Notes under the pieces: model-generated
What the model saw: only the letters and a program-made list of their open reading frames with translations
What the model was told of the DNA's origin: nothing
Database searches by the model: none
Position numbers and translations under genes: made by a program
NCBI GenBank assembly: GCA_002269645.1
Contig: NIVC01000762.1
Span: forward strand, 224,638-288,637
Source of the DNA: Macrostomum lignano
Lineage: Eukaryota
Reading direction: 5' to 3'
Length of the DNA stretch: 64,000 nt
Shown: positions 25,054-64,000 of the stretch, piece after piece
Layout: each line of letters starts with the position of its first letter
Numbering within the stretch: position 1 is the first letter of the stretch

Positions 25054-27504
25054 TTAATTCTGTTGTTGATAGTGGTAAGATTTTAGATTCTGTTGAGTCG
25101 CATTTATTGGCTGAAACGGGCTCGTGAACTGCTGCATTCTTGAGTTCATGCTCTGCATTGGCGGTACTGGTGAGTTCATGCTCTGCATTGGCGGTACTGG
25201 TGAGTTCATGCTCTGCATTGGCGGTACTGGTGAGTTCATGCTCTGCATTGGCGGTACTGGTGAGTTCATGCTCTGCATTGGCGGTACTGGTGAGTTCATG
25301 CTCTGCATTGGCGGTACTGGTGAGTTCATGCTCTGCATTGGCTGCATTGGCTGCATTGAGTTCATGCTCTGCATTGGCTGCATTGAGTTCATGCTCTGCA
25401 TTGGCTGCATTGAGTTCATGCTCTGCATTGGCTGCATTGAGTTCATGCTCTGCATTGGCTGCATTGAGTTCATGCTCTGCATTGGCTGCATTGAGTTCAT
25501 GCTCTGCATTGGCTGCATTGAGTTCATGCTCTGCATTGGCTGCATTGAGTTCATGCTCTGCATTGGCTGCATTGAGTTCATGCTCTGCATTGGCTGCATT
25601 GAGTTCATGCTCTGCATTGGCTGCATTGAGTTCATGCTCTGCATTGGCTGCATTGAGTTCATGCTCTGCATTGGCTGCATTGAGTTCATGCTCTGCATTG
25701 GCTGCATTGAGTTCATGCTCTGCATTGGCTGCATTGAGTTCATGCTCTGCATTGGCTGCATTGAGTTCATGCTCTGCATTGGCTGCATTGAGTTCATGCT
25801 CTGCATTGGCTGCATTGAGTTCATGCTCTGCATTGGCTGCATTGAGTTCATGCTCTGCATTGGCTGCATTGAGTTCATGCTCTGCATTGGCGGTCTGTAA
25901 TGCGACGGTCTCAAGCTCTGATTCGGCAGCAGAGGCGGTGGAGGCCGAGCGAACCAGTTTGTCACAGAATGCATGGAAGTCCTGACTGCCTGCAACGCTG
26001 TTGTGCCACCTCCAGGCCTTTGATTCGAGGTCGCAGAAGCGGCAGCTGCTGGTGAGTCGCACATCTCACAGCTGGCAGGCGAACCGGATTCAACGTTGAC
26101 CGGCGAGTTGACATTGTGGCACAAGCTGCAGATCCACGGCTGCTGCGGAGCGGCCTCCTGCGGCGTAGAAGTCGGCAGTAACGGCGGAGGCAGGCGCGTC
26201 ATCATTTCGATGAGCATCGGAGTGAGCTTGAACTCCACTGGACTGGATGCGGCAGGGGCGGCGGCGGCGGTGACTGCCTGCTTGACTTTCCTGCCACGCA
26301 TGGCGCTGGCCAGGGCCTCCTTGAGGTGCGACTCGCACAGACCCGACTCGACCACCGGCCTCCCGCACTCCCCGTCCTCCAAACCGCCCCCTGTCGTCTC
26401 CTTCTGCTCCTGGACGCTGCACCGACCTACAGCGCCCGCCACTCCGACAAGCTCCAGCTCAACGCCCCGATCCAGCGCCGTCTGCCGAACCTTCTCCAAC
26501 GGCCAGTCTCTGAACGTCTCCACGCACTCCGACCCATGGTGGCAGTGGAGTCCCTTGTTCCCGCCGCAGCACTCCTGTCGAACAAACAGACTGCCGCAGT
26601 CGCTGCAGAACTCCGCCTTGCACTGCCTGCACGTAAGGTGAAGACAGCCGCCTCGAGACAGCTCGAACTGGAAGCCGCACTTTGGACACGAGCCGCCCCG
26701 ACTCTCCAGGAACTGCGCCAGTCCGCGCTCGCTCAAGTCCGTCTGCTGACGCCACTCGCCGAACTGCTGGCAGCTCACGCCTCGGTGCCGCTCGTGCCAC
26801 GCCATGCCGCACTTCCTGCACGTCTCCTTGCCGCAGTGCGGACACCGGATCGCCAACTCCTCGACGTTGTCGTCAACTTCAAAGCCGAAAGCGCAGCCGC
26901 TGCACCACATGAAGTTGCGACTTCGCTCCAGACGCCAGTCGCGCAGTCTGTCGTCGAGCTGCTGCATCAGGTCGCGGCTGAGCCGGCCCGCTAGCAGACT
27001 CCGCAGCTGGGGAAAGTACTCACAGCCGGGATCGGCCAGGGTGTCCGAATCTGGCCGGCTGCAAACCGGACAAGCAAGCCGGTCAGCCGAGCCGTGACTG
27101 CGCAAGCTGACTCGGACGAATCTACACAGACAGTCGCTGCAGAGCCGACAGCCGCACAGAGGGACTGTCAGAAGTGCCAGCTGCGACTCCAGGCACAGCG
27201 GGCAGTCGCCACAGTCGGAGTAATCGGCAACCGCAGTCGGTGCAGCGTGGGGAACGCCAACGGGCTCGCTAGATTTGCCGCAGACTTCGCAGATGAGTCG
27301 ACCAGAACCGGCGGTGCGACGCGTCTCAGCCAGCTGATTCTCGTAGGTGCAGTGACGGCAGCGCCAAGTGGCAGCGCTGCTGCTGTTCTTCTTGACAGTT
27401 GCCTTGTTTTTATGGCTTTTTTGTTTTTGTTTTTCATTCTGATGCAGCACGAATGAAGCTGAATGATTGCCTCTACGTTTGGAGCTGTTGCCGCTCGATG
27501 TGGC
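25054..27504 (-). CDS. HOIP-like paralog 6: NZF-like, divergent RING1, IBR-RING2-LDD cassette A, NZF, then a PMQSMNSMQ tandem-repeat tail
   Basis: 798-aa ORF (GTG at 27450) with no ATG before the first NZF. It is open back to the acceptor ttttttccag| at 27505, implying an unlocated upstream exon. Catalytic GGCLHL is intact. Confidence 0.8.
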   Translation of the reverse strand, partial: ATSSGNSSKRRGNHSASFVLHQNEKQKQKSHKNKATVKKNSSSAATWRCRHCTYENQLAETRRTAGSGRLICEVCGKSSEPVGVPHAAPTAVADYSDCGDCPLCLESQLALLTVPLCGCRLCSDCLCRFVRVSLRSHGSADRLACPVCSRPDSDTLADPGCEYFPQLRSLLAGRLSRDLMQQLDDRLRDWRLERSRNFMWCSGCAFGFEVDDNVEELAIRCPHCGKETCRKCGMAWHERHRGVSCQQFGEWRQQTDLSERGLAQFLESRGGSCPKCGFQFELSRGGCLHLTCRQCKAEFCSDCGSLFVRQECCGGNKGLHCHHGSECVETFRDWPLEKVRQTALDRGVELELVGVAGAVGRCSVQEQKETTGGGLEDGECGRPVVESGLCESHLKEALASAMRGRKVKQAVTAAAAPAASSPVEFKLTPMLIEMMTRLPPPLLPTSTPQEAAPQQPWICSLCHNVNSPVNVESGSPASCEMCDSPAAAASATSNQRPGGGTTALQAVRTSMHSVTNWFARPPPPLLPNQSLRPSHYRPPMQSMNSMQPMQSMNSMQPMQSMNSMQPMQSMNSMQPMQSMNSMQPMQSMNSMQPMQSMNSMQPMQSMNSMQPMQSMNSMQPMQSMNSMQPMQSMNSMQPMQSMNSMQPMQSMNSMQPMQSMNSMQPMQSMNSMQPMQSMNSMQPMQSMNSMQPMQSMNSMQPMQSMNSMQPMQSMNSMQPMQPMQSMNSPVPPMQSMNSPVPPMQSMNSPVPPMQSMNSPVPPMQSMNSPVPPMQSMNSPVPPMQSMNSRMQQFTSPFQPINATQQNLKSYHYQQQN
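25141..25890 (-). repeat. Coding tandem repeats in paralog 6: 27-bp (PMQSMNSMQ) x ~20 and 30-bp (PMQSMNSPVP) x ~6
   Basis: (tgagttcatgctctgcattggctgcat)n and (tgagttcatgctctgcattggcggtactgg)n on the + strand. Confidence 0.93.
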
Positions 27505-29145
27505 CTGGAAAAAAGTACGCGATACAGTCCTTAGTTAGGATTACGGCTTGAAATGGTAGCTAGGCACTAGACTATTTGCGGTTTAAGTTTTGGTCTAACT
27601 GCAAAATCGTTTCTATGACGGTAGGTAACTTACAGGATTTTTTACTTCTTAAACCAAAAAATTAGAATAAATATAAACACGAGACTTCCTAACATGCTAC
27701 AGGTGTTATTAATTTCGATTGTAGCACATCGTTAGTAAACTACTAAGAAAGCGGCAAGGCTCTTTTTAAATATCATCAATAAGGCACTGGATAAGTAGTT
27801 TCAGAGGTACGAGTATATAGCGATCAGAGACTTGCACAATATCATGCTAAAATTACCTTGCAACTGCTCGTAGATTGATTCTTTCTCGCATGCATTTCGC
27901 TGTCTTACGTTCATAAGTGATGCAATAAATGAGAGTCTCTCTCAGAACACCAGCCTTGTCTGAAAAAATGTCATTAACACTGTTTATTATTCATTTCCAA
28001 TTGTCAAGTGGACGTCAATTTAAAGACCTATCATTTTTTACATACGAGATTGTGTAAGCCTGACTAACCTAGCTCTTATTTAACTAATCAATCTCTGCAA
28101 CTACTAATCAAATCCAAAGCCACTAAAATTTAAGTTTAAGAACATATCTGAGTCTGCGGTTTGAGCTACGATAAAGACACTTGACTTTCTGTACACACGT
28201 CGTACGAGTTGCATTGGCAAAGTAGATAAAAAATAAAATATTTAAATGGCAAATCATAAGCATAATATTTGGCTTCATTATTTATTTGTTGAAAATCACC
28301 CCAGCTAGATAATAAGCTGGTATATCTGAATAACAAAATAAATCAGGCGAAACATGAAAATAGATACGATCTTAAACACTGAAGAACAGGGGACAGCACT
28401 TATGTAAAATACCAGTGGAGCATTTTAAAAAGAAATTCAGTTGAATGAAAAACAGCCAATACCACTGGTATAAAGCATCGAAACTAGTATGGTGGAAAGT
28501 TCGGTTTAATCAGAGTACAAAGACGACAGAGTAGCACGAAAATTGGTTAATAACTTTTATCATAGTCTCAAATGGCAATAAAATCTTGATAAAATAACAA
28601 AATGTGGACAATTTGGAACAACTAAAAATTTAAGCACGATGAAATGGACCACTTATAGCAAGCTACTGTAAAAATTCAAAACTTCTAGAGTAATTATACG
28701 AACACGCCAACTGATTTATAAAAAGGCGTTGTTTAGACAGGTTGATTATAATTTGCTACGGTTTAAAATTTCCAGTTCAAAAAGTTTCCTTGGATAATCA
28801 AATTAAATATTGAAACATCAAATATTAACAAAAACATTAATTCAATTCACAGAACCGGGAATTATATTGACGATTTGGTTCTAATCTAACAGACAAAAAA
28901 TCTTAGGTTAGTGTCCAGATTTTACGCTTGTATTAATTAGACCTTGACTCATTTGTGCCGTTGATTAGGGTTATAAGGGTGTGAAAAACATACAGTTCAA
29001 GGTCTTTAAAACCATACTCGTCGATTAGTGAGGATGTTCAGATTTAAACTAACACTACTCGAAACTTCATTTAATTCATAGTAATTCTATTCACAAAAAT
29101 GTCTGATCGGAAAGTAGGGAGTGTAGATAGAACCGTCGTGACGAG

Positions 29146-32100
29146 TCACTTCACAAGTGGCTTCTGCTGAGCAATCAAAGCTCGCAGGGTTGCCACGTTG
29201 TTCTCGCCGACTCCCGAGCAGTCAATTCGTTCACGCAGACACGCTCCCCTGAGCTCGCCTTCGTCCATCACACTGACGGGATCCAGCTTTTGCTTGTTCA
29301 CCAGCGATACAAGGTACTCAATGTAGTGCTTCTCGCACAGGTTCGCCTGGCCCGGTTTAACGTCGACACCGCACGGCTCATCCTTCAAACTGCTTCCAAC
29401 TTCCTTTTGCTCCATCACTTCGCATTTGTCAACTGGGTTCTCAGCTTCGCTCTCGAACTCCACCTTGTGTAAATGCAGCAGCTGCTGGAGCCGGTCCACT
29501 CCAAAGTCTCTAAGGTAGAAGAGACAGTCTCTCGGGTGTTTGCAACCCCCAAGGCCTCTGCCTTGAATGATTGTATACTCGCCGTCACAGCCTGCGCAGA
29601 ATTGAAAGCGGCACATTCGGCAGGTAAAGTGCAGACAACCACCCTTTGCTAGGGCGTACTGGAAGCCACAATTAGGACATTCAATGCCATTGGCTTGTAG
29701 AAAAAATCCAACACCTTTCTCCTGATATTCTGGATCATTGTCCATCAGCCACTTCCCAAACTGGTCGCAGTCAATGCCCTCATGCTGATCTTTCCACGGC
29801 TTTTTGCACTCTTTGCAGGTAAAGGCCTTGCAAATAGGACATTGGAACTTCAAACCGAACATGATTTCTCCGAGAACCATTCCAAAGCCACAAATGCTGT
29901 TGCTGCACCAGCGAAAGTTTGGATCTCGAATAAGATTCCACTCTGTGATCTTTTGCTCCACAATCTCAACAACGTTTTCATCAAATGTATATTCAGATTG
30001 TTGAAGGCCTTGTATCTGTTTGATCTGTGGCAGAAGAATTCCAAAATGGCTTTCCAGCTCCTCTATTTGATTTGCATTGGGAAATTGGCACATTGGGCAA
30101 TGAAGATCTGTGACATGCCCGCCACCTGTCATAGTTGTTGTTACGAAGTTACGGAAGCACTCATGGCACAACTCGCACTGGCATGAAGCCATTGGCAATA
30201 ACTTGTGCTTCGGAAACTCTCCAGTACAGATACTGCACTCGCACTGCAAGAAACTTTTCACGAAGTCGACGTAATCGCACCTGTTATTGCTGCTCTTTGC
30301 AGCCTCCGCAAGATCATGAAGATCGCAGCCCTTGAACTCACTGTTTTTCATAAGCTGAAAAAGTGTTTGTGCATCGCTAATCTTTCTTAAGTCGAACTCT
30401 CCCATCAGACAGTGGAGGGAGGCCTCACTTCCATTCATTCTGTCGAACTTAGGTGGCTCCTGGCCCTCCTTGCAGAACAAAAATTGTGCGAAATCTCTAA
30501 AGACCCGTTCGTTTTCGGCTTGATAAAAATTAGTAAAATCACCATCGCCCTGAAAATCAAGGTTTACCTCATGGGCTGACTGCAGCAACTCTGGGCAGTT
30601 CTCCGCAATCCAAGCGACCTTTGCTTTGTGACGTTGGGCGCACAGCTGAATAGCCGCTTCAAGGTCGCATGTGTTGTCCAGCACAGCAGATGCGACATCG
30701 TCAAATGAGGGTCGCACACCTGCATTATCATCCTGCAACACTTTCGCTACCTCGCAACCGACCTGCTCAATCAGTGCCGGCCATTTTTCTGCCACCCAGG
30801 CCTTGAATCTAGCCTCCGACTGGGCGCCATCATCAGCAGTTGCCACCAAATACAGCTGGCCCAACCGACCATCGAAGCCTGAAAATTCGATATCTTGTAT
30901 AAGCTTCAACAGCTGTCTGTTTGCAGCCTCCTCCATCTCTGGATTTCGCTGACGGGCTACTGGCTTGACTTCAAAGGGAAGCTTGATACCGTCACTGCCA
31001 CCGAGTTCGCGTGGAGTTTGGCAAATTGCGCAAGACTTTGCAGTAATGGGATTAAACATTGTGCATGCCGAGCAAGACCAATCTTGGTCATTGGACAGCG
31101 GCTCTTGTTTAGGCTTCAGTGGTGCGCGATCTGGAATCTCCACCTGCTTTGGAGCTTCTGGCTGTTTTATTGCTGGCTCCTGCTGCTGTTTTTTGACTTT
31201 TGCAATAATTTCCTTATCGTCGCAAGTCATCGAACAAACTGAGCATATGACGCGGCTACTTTTTATTAGCTTCGTCTCGGCTATAGGATTTAGCGCCGTA
31301 CAAACGGGGCAAGGCCAACTGTTCGCTTCCGTTGGTTCGGTAGGCACCGGCCTTGGAGGCAACTGCTGCTGCGGAGGGGGTGGAGCTGTCTCAGGTTTCG
31401 GCACAATTGATTTAGACAGACGTGGCTTGGGCTTCGGTATCGATTGTGGCTGCTGAGGCGGTTGCGGAGCTGGCAGCGATGGCTGCGGAGGCAGCTGATC
31501 TGAGCAGTCAAAAAACTCTTCTTCAGGCGTCGGCGGTCGACGAATGTCGCCAGCTGGCTTCGAAAAGCTGCGCTCCTCGCTAATAGGCTTTAACGACATC
31601 ATGAACTCATTGAGTTTCATTACACGGGCATCTGACTCGCTGGTATCGCTAGGCTGCTGTCGCGGTGGCTGTCGCGGTGGCTGCTGTGGCTGTTGTTGAG
31701 GTAAAACATATCGCGGTTTTTGTCCAGGATACTGCGGCGGTGGAACCCTCGGAGGCGGCACAGCAACAGCAGGTGCAGCAGCAGCAGCAGCAGCAACAGG
31801 CGCAGGTTGCTGCTGCTGTTGAGCTAGATTTGGACTATTATTACCCATGAGACCAATTTGAGACTTATAACTAACCGCTTGACTGTTTGACACAACCTTT
31901 CTAACTCCAGAGTTCAACTGCACACTGGCAGGTCCCACCACGCCCGGTGGCACCAACCGCACAGCGTTGGATCCGACGGCGTCGCTGATTTTACGTCGAT
32001 TATGACTGCGCCGGTCCGGATGCCCGTGCCAGCGTCCGTCGCAACTCTCGCACAGGCGCCGCTTGGAGCAGTGCTTCTCCTGGCAGGCCACCGTTGCCGC

Positions 32101-32712
32101 GGCCTCGCCGCACAGGTCGCAATTCTGGTTGAGCTTGCGCTGCATTGCGTTTACTCTATCCTGCATCCCGGAGGGTCCGGCACGCTTAAGAGCTGGCTGT
32201 TCGTTCTTGGCGATAAGCTTAGTACCCAACGGATGGTTATCCTTAATGATGAGGCTCAGCTCTTCAGCCAGCAGGTACAAGTCTACAAGAGTATCAGCAA
32301 GGGCTTCGTTCGACAATCGTTCAGATGTAATGGTGAAATTCTGATCGTTGCGCTCGAAACCAATGCGTTCTAATAGTTGGTCAACGCCCGAGAGGCACTG
32401 GCAGAATGAGGCCTGCACCCTGTGCCAATCCGGTGGTCGGTCTCTCTCTGGACGCAGCAGGTGCTTGAGCTTGTTGCGCAGAAATAAACAGGACCGCTTG
32501 ACGTCTTCGGCTGATTTTTTGTCACCCGACATGGCGGCGCGAGCATCCACTAGCTTGTACTTTTGGTTGATCTGCATTTGCAGCAGTTCGCCATAGTCTA
32601 GCTGGCGACTATCTCGGATGGCCTCAAGCAGATTAGATCTGGCATTGCGAACTGAAACATCGCCAAGACCTCCGGAGTTCGGAATCGGGGGCAACGGCCT
32701 CGATTGGGCCAT
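29146..32712 (-). CDS. RNF31: Full-length HOIP (RNF31), catalytic subunit of LUBAC; intronless ORF
   Basis: 1188 aa with a PUB-like N-terminus (RPPDWHRV..LLERIGF..TLVDLYLLAEEL), B-box (LCESCDGRWHGHPDRRSH), two NZFs and a UBA region. RING1, IBR, RING2 GGCLHF, HPRDCLFYLRD and LDD EQKEV..DEPCG..LCEKHY.EYLVSLVN are closely colinear with human HOIP motifs. Confidence 0.93.
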   Translation of the reverse strand: MAQSRPLPPIPNSGGLGDVSVRNARSNLLEAIRDSRQLDYGELLQMQINQKYKLVDARAAMSGDKKSAEDVKRSCLFLRNKLKHLLRPERDRPPDWHRVQASFCQCLSGVDQLLERIGFERNDQNFTITSERLSNEALADTLVDLYLLAEELSLIIKDNHPLGTKLIAKNEQPALKRAGPSGMQDRVNAMQRKLNQNCDLCGEAAATVACQEKHCSKRRLCESCDGRWHGHPDRRSHNRRKISDAVGSNAVRLVPPGVVGPASVQLNSGVRKVVSNSQAVSYKSQIGLMGNNSPNLAQQQQQPAPVAAAAAAAPAVAVPPPRVPPPQYPGQKPRYVLPQQQPQQPPRQPPRQQPSDTSESDARVMKLNEFMMSLKPISEERSFSKPAGDIRRPPTPEEEFFDCSDQLPPQPSLPAPQPPQQPQSIPKPKPRLSKSIVPKPETAPPPPQQQLPPRPVPTEPTEANSWPCPVCTALNPIAETKLIKSSRVICSVCSMTCDDKEIIAKVKKQQQEPAIKQPEAPKQVEIPDRAPLKPKQEPLSNDQDWSCSACTMFNPITAKSCAICQTPRELGGSDGIKLPFEVKPVARQRNPEMEEAANRQLLKLIQDIEFSGFDGRLGQLYLVATADDGAQSEARFKAWVAEKWPALIEQVGCEVAKVLQDDNAGVRPSFDDVASAVLDNTCDLEAAIQLCAQRHKAKVAWIAENCPELLQSAHEVNLDFQGDGDFTNFYQAENERVFRDFAQFLFCKEGQEPPKFDRMNGSEASLHCLMGEFDLRKISDAQTLFQLMKNSEFKGCDLHDLAEAAKSSNNRCDYVDFVKSFLQCECSICTGEFPKHKLLPMASCQCELCHECFRNFVTTTMTGGGHVTDLHCPMCQFPNANQIEELESHFGILLPQIKQIQGLQQSEYTFDENVVEIVEQKITEWNLIRDPNFRWCSNSICGFGMVLGEIMFGLKFQCPICKAFTCKECKKPWKDQHEGIDCDQFGKWLMDNDPEYQEKGVGFFLQANGIECPNCGFQYALAKGGCLHFTCRMCRFQFCAGCDGEYTIIQGRGLGGCKHPRDCLFYLRDFGVDRLQQLLHLHKVEFESEAENPVDKCEVMEQKEVGSSLKDEPCGVDVKPGQANLCEKHYIEYLVSLVNKQKLDPVSVMDEGELRGACLRERIDCSGVGENNVATLRALIAQQKPLVK

Positions 32713-34961
32713 GACTGACAGTTTCTAAGTCGAATTTCAGTTAATTTAGAACACAGATTTTGCACAGGAATGTCAATTTTGAAGTTTGCTATTGAGTGTT
32801 GCTTTTATAAAGTTGTCCAAATATGGCATCAAGCCTCTCTATCTGGCCCTCGAATCCTTTGAAACTTTAAAATTGCAATCCAGCCCTTCTTTTCTAAGCT
32901 CTCTTCTCTCCCGTCTTCTCTTTCTTTTTCTCTCTCTATTCTGATTTCCTCTCTCATCTCTTCTTTCTTTTTATCTCTAATCGCATTTATCCTCTTATTT
33001 TCTCTCTCTTATCTTCCCTCTCATCACATCTCACATCTAATCTTATCTTTTCTCTTTCATCTCTTTTGTCATCCTGTTTCCCATTTCTCATCTCTCCCCT
33101 CAGCATATAGACCTTGCAGTTACACAGATAGAAAAGAACTGCTCTTATAGCTATGACTACATAAATCTGGTAGTTTGAACTCTTTCCTATAGATTTCAAT
33201 AGTCATCGTTTTGACTTTTCAAACTATTGTTAGAAAAAATAATGTAAAACAATGTAAAAATGTAAAAATACAGCTTTATAAAAATACAGTGATTTAGAAA
33301 GAAGCTATAATTCTGCATACAACTATGCTTATTATAAAAAATTAAAAGTCTAATACTAGGATAGGCATAAATAAAATACAAACTAGCTTACTAATAAGTA
33401 GTAGGTTGGGACTGTGATACAGCATTTATTTTTACATATGGGACAAATGTATACCTACTATTAATAATGCCAATATTCTTTTATAGATCTTTTAATAATT
33501 TCCAAATAACATAAATTCTGATATAATTGAAATCTCATAAGAATAACTTAAAGCACTTAATACTCTAATATTTAGTTGAATTACAGTAGGATTGTCATAG
33601 GATCTGTCTCTTTAACAAACTTCTAGCTTGCTACCTATAGATACTATATTTTTAACATACATTAAGTATATAATTATAGACTAATACACTTCTTGATTTA
33701 GAAAATATGTCTAAAAAAGTTTTTTTAGATGTTTCAGATTTTTTTTGCTTTTAGCTATTCATTTTAAATTTTTTTAAATGCTTAGTTTCCCAATTGCAGC
33801 CAAAGTCTTACCTGTGGAAGATACCTTTTTTAGACTAGACTTTTTTCTTTCTCATGCATGGTCTTATACCTTTCTCCCTCTGTCTAATATAAATTATAAA
33901 TTGATAATGCTATTATTGCCTACAACTCTATGAAATCTATTGGACTATTCACAAAAAATTGGACTATTTTATGCTTAAATGCATTATTACATAGCTTTTA
34001 CTTGTATGTTGTAATATATGACTATCTTAAAGATATTTGAAAGGAATTTCTCAATATATAAGTATTAAAAAGTTTAAAATAGTTACAATATATTGAAGGA
34101 CATCTATACCTTAGAAAGAATTCTTTTATTTTCCTTTTCCTTCCTTTCCTTTCTTTTCCTAAATGAAAACATTTAACATTTTTTATTTAACATAAGCTTT
34201 AAGGTAAGTTTGGCTATGATAGAATTTTACCTTTTAATTTAGTTAAAACTAAACATATATATATATTTTAAATAATTATGCTATAAATCTAATAGCTAAG
34301 TTTATCTGTTAAAACTTTAACAATTTAGGACCATATCTATTTGGCATTGTAGGCATAGGCATTAGAATATTTAAAAAAGTAAGTGGCCAGCTAGCCCTTT
34401 TCCAAAGCAAACCACTTCAATCAATAAATGAAAGATTGATTTTATTCAATTTTTTTAATTTCCAGAAACTGAACTAACATATAAAATCATGATATTTTCT
34501 ATATTTTTATATGAAGACAAAGTCCTTATCTTATAATTTTAGAAGTCATTTGCAAGAAAATATATCAAGAGTTGCTTAAAAATGGATGGGAGGCCAGGTA
34601 CCACTGATGCCCCTAACTTCAAAAGTGGTAGGGGGCATGACCCATTGCCCTCCCCTCATTTTATGTCAAAATTTAATAATATATATAATCTTAGGTCAAA
34701 ATTAAAAATGCCAAATTGAAAACTAAGATATTAGCTGGTACAAATATTATTTAAGACATTCAAAATCAAATAAATTTCAACATCCATCATTTATCCCTTA
34801 TGTAGCAAAGCCTTTCTGACCAAAGTTGCTAAGGTCTACAACTTTCATAGTTACATTAGAGCCTAATCAAACTTTACAACTTGATAGAAGTCTTAAGAAA
34901 ACCCAATAATGCCAGTGACTAGAAGTATCAATCAATATTCTAAATTTAATATGAACTACAA

Positions 34962-38673: not shown

Positions 38674-42116
<3,443 letters not shown>

Positions 42117-46059: not shown

Positions 46060-46742
46060 GGGGAACAGAGGGGAACAGAGGGGAACAGAGGGAACAGAGG
46101 GGAACAGAGGGGAACAGAGGGGAACAGAGGGGAACAGAGGGGAACAGAGGGGAACAGAGGGGAACAGAGGGGAACAGAGGGGAACAGAGGGGAACAGAGG
46201 GGAACAGAAGGGAACAGAGGGGAACAGAGGGGAACAGAGGGGAACAAAGGGGAACAGAGGGGAAGAGAGGGGAAGAGATGGGAAAGGAGGGGAACAGAGG
46301 GGAACAGAGGGAAACAGCGGGGAAAAGAGGGTAACAGAGGGGAACAGAGGGGAACAGAGGGGAACAGAGGGGAACAGAGGGGAACAGAGGGGAACAGAGG
46401 GGAACAGAGAGGAACAGAGGGGAAGAGAGGGGAACAGAGGGTAACAGAAGGTAACAGAGGGGAACAGAGGGGAACAGAGGGGAACAGTGGGGAACAGAGG
46501 GGAACAGAGGGGAACAGAGGGGAACAGAGGGGAACAGAGGGGAACAGAGGGGAACAGAGAGGAACAGAGGGGAAGAGAGGAGAAGAGAGGGGAACAGAGG
46601 GGAACAGTGGGGAACAGAGGGGGAGAGAGGGGAACAGAGGGGAACAGAGGGGAACTGTGGGGAACAGAGGGGAACAGAGGGGAACAGTGGGGAACAGAGG
46701 GGAACAGAGGGGAACAGAGGGGAACAGAGGGGAACAGAGGGG
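46060..46742. repeat. 10-bp tandem repeat (gggaacagag)n in BCL11 intron 2
   Basis: Direct reading. Confidence 0.96.
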
Positions 46743-46841
46743 AAAGAAGTGTAGTTGGGTGTGCGGAGAGGCGAGAGGGAGCAGAGGCACATTCATGCAT
46801 GTTACACAGACAAAGACGCAAGCCGCCAACTCACCCTCCAG

Positions 46842-47956
46842 CCCCTGGCAACGCAGCGGACCCGGCAGCCGGAGGTCAACAGTCGGACGAACCCAGCAGT
46901 TTCGTGTGCCGCAAATGCCTGTGCAGCTACCGAAGCGCCTGGCAGCTGCTGCAGCATGCCCAGTCCCAGCACCGGCTGGAGATCTTCCTGTCCTCGGGAG
47001 AGGGCATCGCTGCCGCAACGGAAAACGCTTCAACGACAAGCTCCTCGCCGCTGACGCACACGCCACCACCGCCGCCGTCGCTGCAACAGCATCCCGAGAA
47101 GCGGCGTCTGGCGCTCCAGGCCGGTCTGTTCGACCCGAGCCTGATGCTGCCGCCGCCGCCGCCGCCTCCACCGACCAGCTCGAGTCTGCTGTCATCGGCT
47201 GCCGCATTCTACGCTGCCAGATCGCCCTACAGTCCCCACTGCTGGCACCCAGCTGTCACGGCTGCTATGGCGGCCGCCATGGCGGCTTCCGCGGCGGCCA
47301 AGCGGCCAAGGCTGGATTTCGAAGGTCCTCAGCAGCAGCATCAGCTGCCTCTGCCGCTGCAGCTGCCACCACCGCAGCTCTGGCGACGCAGCTCGGTGGT
47401 ACCGCAGCCGCCGCCGCTGCCTCCGCCGCCGCTCCTGCCGCCAGCCCTGTCTCCGGCCGGACCTCCAGCCTCAAGCGTATCTCAAGCCGCTGCACCGCCG
47501 ACTTCCTCTGTGTCGCTACCGACAGCGGCTGTCGATATTGATTCTGGAAATGCTAAAAACGCCAAGAACCTCAGCAGCAGCAGCAGCAGCAGCAACAAGA
47601 ACAATCAACCTGCCTCAACTGCAGACGCCGACGCCATTGCAGCAACACCGTCGCCGACAAAGTCTCGACGCAGCGACACCTGCGAGTTCTGCGGCAAAGT
47701 GTTCAAGAACTGCTCGAACCTGACTGTGCACAGGCGGAGCCACACGGGTGAGAAGCCGTACAGCTGCCGGCTGTGCAGCTACGCCTGCGCGCAGAGCAGC
47801 AAGCTGACGCGGCACATGAAGACGCACGGCGGCAAGAGCGCTGCTGCGCACGTGTGCACCCGATGCCGCACGCCGTTCAGCGTTGCCAGCACTCTCGAGA
47901 AGCACCTGCGCAAGTGCCAAGCCGATGGAACTGACGACGTCCCAGAAGCCAATTGA
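46842..47956 (+). CDS. BCL11: BCL11A/B-family (Chronophage-like) C2H2 zinc-finger transcription factor, main exon
   Basis: [24 protein letters not shown] and a C-terminal triple finger [61 protein letters not shown], diagnostic of BCL11. Acceptor ccctccag| at 46841. Confidence 0.92.
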
Positions 47957-59619: not shown

Positions 59620-60110
59620 AAGTTTATGAGTTCATGTGTGACTTCATGAGTTTATGAGTGAGTTCATGAGTTTATGAGTGAGTTTTTGAGGTCATTGAAG
59701 AGTCCATGAGGCCATTGGAGAGTTCACGAGTTAGTTCATGAGGTCATTGGAGAGTCCATGAGGCCATTGGAGAGTTCACGAGTTAGTTCATGAGGTCATT
59801 GGAGAGTTCACGAGTTAGTTCATGAGGTCATTGGAGAGTCCATGAGGTCATTGGAGAGTTCACGAGTTAGTTCATGAGGTCATTGGAGAGTCCATGGGAT
59901 CATTGGAGAGTCCATGAGATCATTGGAGAGTCCATGAGATCATTGGAGAGTCCATGAGGTCATTGGAGAGTCCATGAGATCATTGGAGAGTCCATGAGGT
60001 CATTGGAAAGTTCACGAGTTAGTTCATGAGATCATTGGAGAGTCCATGAGGTCATTGGAGAGTCCATGAGGTCATTGGAGAGTCCATGAGGTCATTGGAG
60101 AGTTCACGAG
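59620..60110. repeat. 20-bp minisatellite (gagagtccatgaggtcattg) and variants
   Basis: Direct reading. Confidence 0.9.
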
Positions 60111-60570: not shown

Positions 60571-62245
60571 CTGCAATAAGGGCCATGGGGAGCGGTTTGA
60601 GGAATGTAGTGTGAGCATCTTTGCGTGTATTTTGTTGTAAATTGACTGCATTAGTTTCTATATTGTTATTGAATTGTTATTTTGCTTTAGTTTAGTCATA
60701 CGTTTTTGGTGTACTTTTTCCTTGTTAGTTAGAATCAATTTTGTAAACAGGTTAGAGTTAGACGCCAAATTTGTGACTCAGCGGAGGGTTGAGTTTGTCT
60801 GCGAACCCCAGCTTGCGCGGTCAGCCAATCAGAACCGGCCTGGACCCTGGCACGCGGCAAGTTTCAATTCTACCCGGCGCCGCGGGCACAGTGCAAATCG
60901 GCTTATCGAGCGGCCGGCCAGACGACCACCACCCGGCTTGAGGGGGTTTTGGGGGTTGTGACTCTGACTATATATGAAAGTGTGTTTTGGCAATCGGATC
61001 TCGCCTCTCTCCTTCTCGCCTCTCTTTCCCCGGTTTTGTTTGTCCAGCTTCCCGGCCGGTGGCCTGTTTCCCCTTGATTCGCGCTTTGAGGCGTTTTGAT
61101 TTCATCACCCCCGGTCCATATCTTTGTCCCCGCCCAACCGCAGTAGTCTTGTGACGTAACGTCTACGGCAAATTCCTGTCTGAAGTCGTCGCTATCAAGC
61201 GCGGTTAGATAGAGACTGTCGGATCTGATCAAGTACGCGGCCTCGATACCGAGGGCCTCAGTGTTACACTGAAGGGCAGTGCGATAGAATTTAGTCGGTA
61301 CTCCGTTGAACGGTCGATTCGGCAGGGCTCTCGTTGAGAGTAGGTTCTGGTTTAGGCCAGGGGTTAGGAGTCTTTCTCCATGGTCCTGTGTTCGGTGCCT
61401 CCTTCTTCTTCTTCTTCAGCTGAGATCCGCTTGTCAGTGCGTATATAGTCATTATTTATTAATCGTTATTATTCGTTATCATCAGTCTAATTATCTGCGC
61501 CGCAAATTTGTTTGAATCTTGTAACTCAGCTAATCAAATTAAACCGTCAATCAAGTTAGCTATTCTTGAAATAGGATTATCACTCTCTAAATCTTTCGGT
61601 TTGTGTTCCCTCGTGTTCTTTATTTTCTTGTACTGTACCTGCGGCTATTGGAGAAGACTGGTAGAACTCGCCGACCGGCGATAGGCGATTAGGATTAATA
61701 GCTTTAAAATCTCTGACGCTCCAAGTAGGTTTGTCTAGGGCCTAACTAATTGCTCACCGTGCATGCTATTATCTAATTGCCTATTTCATCACAGGAAGGT
61801 GCGTTACGAGCGTATGTGCTCAGTCATTTTTAGACTTCGATTTGGTCATGACTAGCTTACATTTAGGTCATACGACTTTAATTCGGTCATAACTGGTTTA
61901 GGTCATCTGATTTTGATAGATTTTGATTTTTATTTTAAATAGTTTAGGTCAGTAGTAATATACCATACAAAATTGCCAGCAAACCATTCTCATAAACCAA
62001 ATGATTTTAACCCTTTATCAGTGTGAAATGGCTCATTTGACTCAAAGTCATTCGACTTTCGCTCCGCTCATCCTCGCTTCATTTCGGTCAATCAACTCAT
62101 TTCACACTTACAACGGTTAATTCTCTTTGAATTCTGAGAATACGCTCTGCTCTCGTCGTTCGCTTTGGTTTGCTGGCAATTTTGGCTGTTTAAATTGGCC
62201 TGGTTTAAATATCAGGCATTTTATACAATAAAATTTATATAATAT

Positions 62246-62716
62246 TTATTCGAGATCTGCTTTCGGCAACAGTAGTCCACTGCCCATAACGTTTGCATTT
62301 AAGAAGATTCCAGAACCTGCTTTTGGTCGCATCTCGAGATATAATCCGCTTCCGTCATGTTTTTCAATGATGTTAAAATCTTTTCCTAATTTATTAAAAA
62401 TCTTCTGAACGGCTGGTCTAAAATTGGCTCCAATATTGTCAAAAAATCCTTTAGCTTTCTCACCCGTTTTTTCTAAAGTTTGCCCAAACTCGTGTAGTTT
62501 ATCCGCGAAAACTCCGCTTCCGTGGGTTGATCCTTGTAAGATTAAACCTTTTCCCGACGCTAACCTAGCTTCTGCATTTCTTTTTTGTGCTGGTGTTGCT
62601 GAACTACTATTAATAGTGTCTATGAGTTTCTGTTTGAATTGAGCATCCTGCGTTATTTGCTGTCTTTGAAATTCAGCATCTCGTTTAGCTTTTTCATCCG
62701 CAGCTTTTTTTTGCAA
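62246..62716 (-). CDS. Polinton small structural-like ORF, 5'-truncated
   Basis: Coiled-coil-like start followed by repeated GSG-hydrophobic motifs (GSGVF, GSGLYL, GSGIFL, GSGLLL). No ATG at the start. Confidence 0.45.
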   Translation of the reverse strand: MQKKAADEKAKRDAEFQRQQITQDAQFKQKLIDTINSSSATPAQKRNAEARLASGKGLILQGSTHGSGVFADKLHEFGQTLEKTGEKAKGFFDNIGANFRPAVQKIFNKLGKDFNIIEKHDGSGLYLEMRPKAGSGIFLNANVMGSGLLLPKADLE

Positions 62717-62719
62717 AAA

Positions 62720-63142
62720 TTATTGGGAGCAAAGTTGCAAGTGGAGGTATACCCCTTGTTTTGCTTTTAATTCTGCTAACTGTTTTCGATAATCATGAAT
62801 TCTTTTTCCTGCTAAACCGGCTGCTCCTGCTGCCCCAAGTCCTAAAAGAATTGGTAGAATGGGTAGTAATCCACCATCTTTTTTTATGTGGGTCTCCAAT
62901 AAAAATTTCACATCAGAGTCTGTTAGCCGATAATTTTTACCACGGTTGTTAAAGGATATTGGCCTTCCTTCTTGTGCATATTTTGAAGCAAGTTTAAATG
63001 TATCAATGTCGTAGTCAAGTTTTTTGCCTAAGCGATCCAATCTTTTCAACATTGCGTGGCTGTGTTTATTATCATCTAAATCTAAAGTGTCTACAACCTC
63101 TGCTATAAAATATGGCCGATTTTCGTCATTAACTGAGTCCAT
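62720..63142 (-). CDS. Polinton/adintovirus pX-like small core protein
   Basis: C-terminal GGLLPILPILLGLGAAGAAGLAG..KQLAEL..KQGVYL resembles the adenovirus pX C-terminus and Polinton small proteins. It lies inside the TIRs. Confidence 0.55.
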   Translation of the reverse strand: MDSVNDENRPYFIAEVVDTLDLDDNKHSHAMLKRLDRLGKKLDYDIDTFKLASKYAQEGRPISFNNRGKNYRLTDSDVKFLLETHIKKDGGLLPILPILLGLGAAGAAGLAGKRIHDYRKQLAELKAKQGVYLHLQLCSQ

Positions 63143-63164
63143 TTTTATATTGTTAAAATTTCTT

Positions 63165-63425
63165 TAATCCTTTTCCGCCTTTTATTGTGGTTAACACTTT
63201 ATTAAAATCCTGACTATCTTTATTGCAATAAAGCAATTCTGTTGGTTGTGCGTCTTGGGTTGCTTCCTGTGCTAGTTTCAAATCTTTTATTGCTTTTATT
63301 TGTGAGAGGGTGTCGTTAAATTCCCTCAATTTCTTTAGTTCTTCTGCTGCTCTCGCTGCTTCGATTCCGCCCTTTACAGCGTTTGTTATCGAACCTGCGG
63401 CAGAGCTTTCTGTTACTGTTTATTT
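63165..63425 (-). pseudogene. 5'-truncated pX-like paralog fragment in the mini-Polinton
   Basis: Manual translation: SSAAGSITNAVKGGIEAARAAEELKKLREFN...IKGGKGLKKF*. No start codon. Confidence 0.45.
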
Positions 63426-64000
63426 TTAGTAACAGAAAAAGAGACGAAGTGGAGGCACAATAGGTTGGGATAGAATTGGAGCTTTTCTTTTAGAATGGCG
63501 CTTTTCTTTATAATTATAAAGATTGGCGCTAGTTGTGTTGCTGCCTTTCTCTCTATAAAGGAACAATGGGTGGTAAGAGAAAAGAGACGAATTATAACTT
63601 ATGAATGGGCCAGTATGAAGTTTCATACTACAGAAAAAGACCCTTGGCGCCTGCGGCGCGGCCTGGGGTTACAGAGTGCTTGTGTGTGTTAGGGAGAGTT
63701 TGAGTACCATACAAAATTGCCAGCAAACCAAAGCGAACGATGAGAGCAGAGCGTATTCTCAGAATTCAAAGAGAATTAATCGTTGTAAGTGTGAAATGAG
63801 TTGATTGACCGAAATGAAGCGGAGGATGAGCGGAGCGAGTTGAGCGGAGTGAAGACGAGCGGTAATGAAAGGGAAATGAGCCATTTCACACTGATAAAGG
63901 GTTAAATCATTTGATTTATGAGAACGGTTTGCTGGCAATTTTGTATGGTATATTACTACTTAGGTCATACAGTTTTGATTCGGTCATAAATAGTTTAGGT

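Follow-up and report, generated by a model that had tools for sequence, protein, structure and literature searches.

Repeat databases contain non-autonomous Polinton entries, and amplification to many sites is the defining trait of a non-autonomous family. In PMC8097293, Mavericks are described with an end motif of the (AGT)2/(ACT)2 type and a 6-bp target-site duplication (TSD), and 96% of the vertebrate copies are defective, while PMC8502044 describes pX-like domains in adintoviruses. Non-autonomous Maverick/Polinton copies were not seen in the anole genome according to an excerpt of PMC3014272, and a term search for mini-Polintons in portions of a C. elegans preprint (10.1101/2024.01.15.575659) added nothing on minis. 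Our mostly title-level literature search found no title on amplified mini-Polintons.

Here, we examined a window of 64,000 nucleotides from Macrostomum lignano (contig NIVC01000762.1), in which an original prediction had placed a non-autonomous mini-Polinton of 2 kb with intact ends and near-identical terminal inverted repeats (TIRs). The element occupies 61951-63960 (2,010 bp), starts with AGTAGT, ends with ACTACT and is abutted on both sides by TAGGTC (61945..61950 and 63961..63966); when overlaps of 1–14 were tested for the TSD, the sole match was at 6, which confirms the predicted termini and 6-bp TSD. The ends thus have the (AGT)2...(ACT)2 or (AG)3...(CT)3 form and the 6-bp TSD taken to mark a Polinton/Maverick origin, and TIRs of the several hundred bp expected are represented by paired arms of 234/249 bp, the left one truncated. 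The element is not an autonomous Polinton, which would be 15–25 kb long with its own pPolB and integrase.

As predicted, the insertion lies inside a tandem repeat, an array of ~35-bp units (61840..64000) that the element splits and that runs uninterrupted, with more units, through an empty paralogous segment (G000:C110 near 273,000) with ~95–96% identity to the flanks. The larger minisatellite containing GGTCAT (59621-60110) is distinct from this target array. Because TAGGTC recurs in the array (9 in 560 bp), such a TSD would arise by chance alone in ~1.6% of cases and is by itself modest evidence; it becomes convincing through the pattern of the family, in which the TSD is 6 bp throughout and is exact in 10 of the 11 other paired members examined. 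The exception, C506:477342-494412, has 100% identical TIRs and flanks that form no TSD.

Just upstream of the element, a ~1.2-kb insertion (60601-61793) with AGGAA on both sides is likewise missing from the paralog; it is likely a solo LTR, and 377 candidate matches were obtained for its 3′ portion, many of them in pairs ~9–10 kb apart. Elsewhere in the window, 25054-27534 and 29146-32724 (minus strand) are long, apparently intronless ORFs that we take to be host genes with cysteine-rich, RING-between-RING-like motifs, and the end of 46445-47956 presumably holds C2H2 zinc-finger-like motifs. An array of 860 copies of TTAG (38674-42116) lies amid many other micro- and minisatellites.

The genome holds a family of long, coding relatives, the kind of partner that the original prediction had proposed to look for. 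Genome DNA searches scored 40 candidates each, and with the 2-kb element as query there were at least 127 matches (40 of 342 candidates scored). Two exact terminal patterns marked 32 and 58 ends in the assembly, against 0 for the reversed controls, and 25 pairs of ends facing each other within 40 kb can be drawn from these 90: 13 span 15.9–18.9 kb, 3 span >24 kb and 9 span <12 kb, the last including the 2-kb element three times. Members of 16–19 kb carry pPolB, an integrase and a packaging ATPase, and family member size fits that of Polintons/Mavericks as given in PMC6431247. In a copy of 17,950 bp (C734), pPolB was matched above the cut-off in several ORFs (PF03175, E 2e-15), the rve integrase just below it (PF00665, E 1e-6) and an A32-type packaging ATPase at it (PF04665, E 5e-5). 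Two further matches below the cut-off were a weak PLA2-like one (PF08398, E 0.007) at the N terminus of the integrase ORF (L045:5446-6594) and a weak restriction-endonuclease one (PF09553, E 8e-5) in the ORF beside it (L045:4533-5039). Other ORFs of this copy, without a match in Pfam, we take from their motifs to be protease-like and capsid-like.

The 2-kb element shares its termini, and 81–94% internal identity, with elements carrying pPolB, the rve integrase and the A32-type ATPase. Sequence comparison thus supports a Polinton/Maverick origin, as originally proposed, and a link of the TIRs to a non-Polinton transposase, which would have refuted the prediction, does not hold, since the family carries Polinton genes. 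No near-identical full-length parent was found among the 40 candidates scored; the best blocks have 89–96% identity.

The ends are less well preserved than had been expected. The arms pair over 234 bp on the left (left TIR, 61951..62184, plus strand) and 249 bp on the right at an overall identity of 88%, where family TIRs measure 291–376 bp and are 96–100% identical in 11 of 11 other pairs, so that neither "intact ends" nor "near-identical TIRs" describes the element. They differ by 4 substitutions in 213 aligned bases, single-base gaps and a private scar at 62039..62058 (plus strand), where 20 nt found in no other family end examined replace a 35-nt TIR segment. The left arm stops ~100 bp before the family TIR length, cut at nt 234 within the inner inverted copy of the terminal motif, and the right TIR (63630..63960, minus strand) has the family length (~330 bp), with its inner inverted motif copy at 63705-63729. 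A derivation of the arms from two different subfamilies was rejected, the left-arm variant being absent from all other ends examined. Homology to the relatives ends at the polymerase start codon: comparison with 7 relatives and a relative's ORF assigns 62217..62245 (minus strand) to the start codon of the lost polymerase gene and the spacer upstream of it, after which come a 32-nt filler (62185..62216) at the main deletion junction and then the cut left TIR. Among 23 sequence stretches of relatives no source of the filler was found (longest match 11 nt), and the filler at both scars, the junction and the TIR replacement, is non-templated.

A tblastn search with the proteins of a full-length relative found no polymerase, integrase, ATPase, protease-like, penton or major-capsid-like match in the element. 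The predicted lack of polymerase, integrase and capsid genes was therefore upheld; remnants of three small Polinton genes, all on the minus strand, had been overlooked. The first, orfC (62246..62716), a small conserved Polinton ORF, matches the relative's protein along its whole length at 85% identity and has no Pfam match above the cut-off. The second, orfB (62712..63142), is weakly adenovirus-pX-like, with a frame broken near 62750 and 62–63 bp missing near 62711; its counterpart in C734 matched PF05829 (Adeno_PX) below the cut-off (E 9e-4), and in Atlas the best scores were 0.88–0.89, with pX-bearing clusters at 0.88, which are under 0.9 and serve as leads only. The third, orfA (63156..63407), has lost its 5′ third and matches residues 48–127 of 136. 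A Pfam scan of 5 ORFs of the window gave no match above the cut-off. Compared with its relatives, the element has thus undergone deletions beyond the main one, of 62–63 bp and of >100 bp.

The deletion junction, searched with ≤2 mismatches, occurs at 3 places in the 764-Mb assembly, all in different contigs (control 0). These three contigs have the same TSD, flanks of 98–99% identity and colinearity over ~34 kb, and they are 100% identical along 2.2 kb of host sequence located 4 kb away from the element. The common TSD and ~34 kb of flank mark a single insertion, multiplied along with the surrounding host segment or represented by several haplotypes, and rule out three independent transpositions. 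The three copies differ by 5–6 substitutions and by deletions of 14–46 bp, the latter showing that decay in place continues. That the ~34-kb block is itself a giant mobile element was not supported: one border lies inside a host ORF, with lower-identity sequence continuing beyond it, and the other falls in a GATA microsatellite. Triplicate loci are common in this assembly, since further Polinton ends share flanks over three contigs (C570/C619/C181; C52/C55/C600; C632/C665/C4756; C893/C1052/C3225); the internal content of the same-site copies C570, C619 and C181 differs.

Other members of the family have also been shortened. C578:51372-59186 (7,815 bp) and C2173:75438-75679 (242 bp) occupy one site, with both flanks common at 94–99%, and the 242-bp "solo TIR" keeps both its AGTAGT and ACTACT ends. 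In family TIRs the inner inverted motif copy (~nt 206–232) has the same orientation as the far terminus and repeats it directly, so recombination between the two likely collapses the element, as in solo LTR formation; a collapse during assembly may also have produced the 242-bp form. No title matching a solo-TIR collapse of this kind was found in the literature search. Two further minis, C1040:22365-25404 (3,040 bp) and C393:168308-172388 (4,081 bp), look young, with TIRs 99.5–100% identical, exact TSDs and, in each, a single clean junction near the beginning of the polymerase gene; C393 retains a full-length integrase match. A junction-spanning match was found for 1 of 40 scored candidates in both cases (of 183 candidates for C1040 and 277 for C393), and no same-site alleles were found among the 40 scored for each, their flanks being repetitive. 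The three shortest coding minis all retain the same three-gene cassette and break at polymerase codons 1 (the 2-kb element), 24 (C393) and 82 (C1040). Of 7 independent two-ended copies with deletions, 3 break at the polymerase start (p ~0.04 by a rough hand estimate made post hoc).

We consider that the 2-kb element, the relic of a Polinton at one site, probably lost its middle (~15 kb) after integrating at full length, and the single insertion site favours this alternative, internal deletion after insertion, which the original prediction had also named. An older duplication would have given rise to the empty paralog, after which the family integrase would have placed a full-length copy into the tandem array and created the TSD. 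Repair of a chromosomal break with filler would then have removed the sequence from nt 234 of the left TIR to the polymerase start codon, with smaller deletions in its aftermath, and the host segment would finally have been copied or split among haplotypes into the three contig copies. Deletion in place fits the cut and scarred left TIR, the piecemeal deletions and the single site, and C578 and C2173, sharing both flanks, give it a precedent in the family. As no full-length or longer allele was found at this insertion site (40 candidates scored per search), the timing of the deletion relative to integration is something we infer. Against such an order of events, what is left of the left TIR, its outer 234 bp including the terminal motif, might suffice in cis, and random decay would not predict C1040 and C393, with their matching TIRs, exact TSDs and nearly the same polymerase breakpoint. 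The 2-kb element itself is likely inert.

The strongest competitor, which we hold to be unlikely yet worth weighing, is that a genome replicating outside the chromosome suffered the deletion, and that a helper's integrase inserted the resulting defective 2-kb form a single time, with decay to follow. The TSD is exact around the short form, the two younger minis combine near-identical TIRs with exact TSDs, three minis break at polymerase codons 1, 24 and 82 with the same cassette, and polB-less Polintons are apparently mobile in butterflies, according to 10.1101/2025.02.07.637071; a one-off insertion of this kind keeps its place among the readings because no longer allele was found at the site and because of C1040 and C393. 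Against it, each of the three tested junctions lies at a single site, the left TIR bears a truncation and a scar, where the ends of a fresh insertion ought to match, and filler junctions with piecemeal deletions would suit chromosomal repair.

A bolder extension, which we judge rather improbable, is that the family recurrently sheds defective minis with both ends and the pX-like cassette, broken at the polymerase start, that helpers replicate and integrate, so that the minis would be fossils of defective interfering particles. If this were true, a helper could integrate an animal Polinton that has no more than short ends in cis, and the minis would be the first sign of defective-interfering genomes among Polintons within the literature searched (titles and parts of texts). 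Caution is needed, as TIRs and a perfect TSD, even in three assembly copies, do not prove mobility.

Far less credible is a family of identical 2-kb elements that spreads as a satellite or in defective-interfering fashion, for which the three near-identical copies in the assembly might speak. All three have one TSD and one set of flanks, and a fourth junction was not found in the 764-Mb assembly; moreover, such a family should show one junction at several sites with differing TSDs and two intact matching ends, and the element has neither, its left TIR being cut at nt 234 and scarred. The trans-mobilised miniature or satellite first envisaged is thereby disfavoured: no 2-kb copies with the same junction and different TSDs were found, and a single copy is what the original prediction had regarded as implying deletion in situ.

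It is equally hard to credit that the assembler collapsed a full-length element. The assembly is rich in repeats, and contigs of 3 of the 4 public runs leave the filler uncovered at 97% likeness; in the remaining run, a short record covers it together with a variant with 5 differences, and the gaps elsewhere are uninformative. The public-run data consisted of assembled contigs throughout, and no RNA run was listed for the sequence. Three separate contigs of the assembly, which diverge from one another in other places, nevertheless carry the junction, and collapse would create neither the 32-nt filler nor the private TIR scar, which also turns up in two public runs at the contig level. Contigs of three of the four runs cover the left insertion point and extend 14–27 letters into the element, too few for the bridging rule. 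A MITE-like element with similar ends, belonging to a non-Polinton transposase family, e.g. Ginger, would account for the TIR and TSD anatomy and the lacking enzyme gene and is refuted to the point of being negligible by ends and interior that match the 16–19-kb elements with pPolB, rve and A32 ATPase.

Read as a post-insertion relic, the 2-kb element matters little, since defective Polinton copies are the rule. Its parent family resembles Polintons/Mavericks in a size of ~17 kb, in the set of pPolB, rve integrase and packaging ATPase and in consisting mostly of defective copies, and the element itself resembles defective Polinton/Maverick (adintovirus) copies in its end motif, 6-bp TSD, long TIRs and pX-like gene (PMC8097293, PMC6431247 and PMC8502044). 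As a TIR-bounded derivative without a polymerase, it is also like the polB-less Polintons of butterflies (10.1101/2025.02.07.637071), but those are long, with several related insertions, whereas the 2-kb element occupies one site and has lost its integrase and capsid genes too. Unlike the usual defective Polintons, it has been reduced to 2 kb of termini and three small genes, with all core genes gone and the left TIR truncated. In keeping its ends and TSD while losing the enzyme across a filler junction, it is like internally deleted non-autonomous DNA transposons and MITEs, and unlike non-autonomous transposon families it has not been amplified to many sites.
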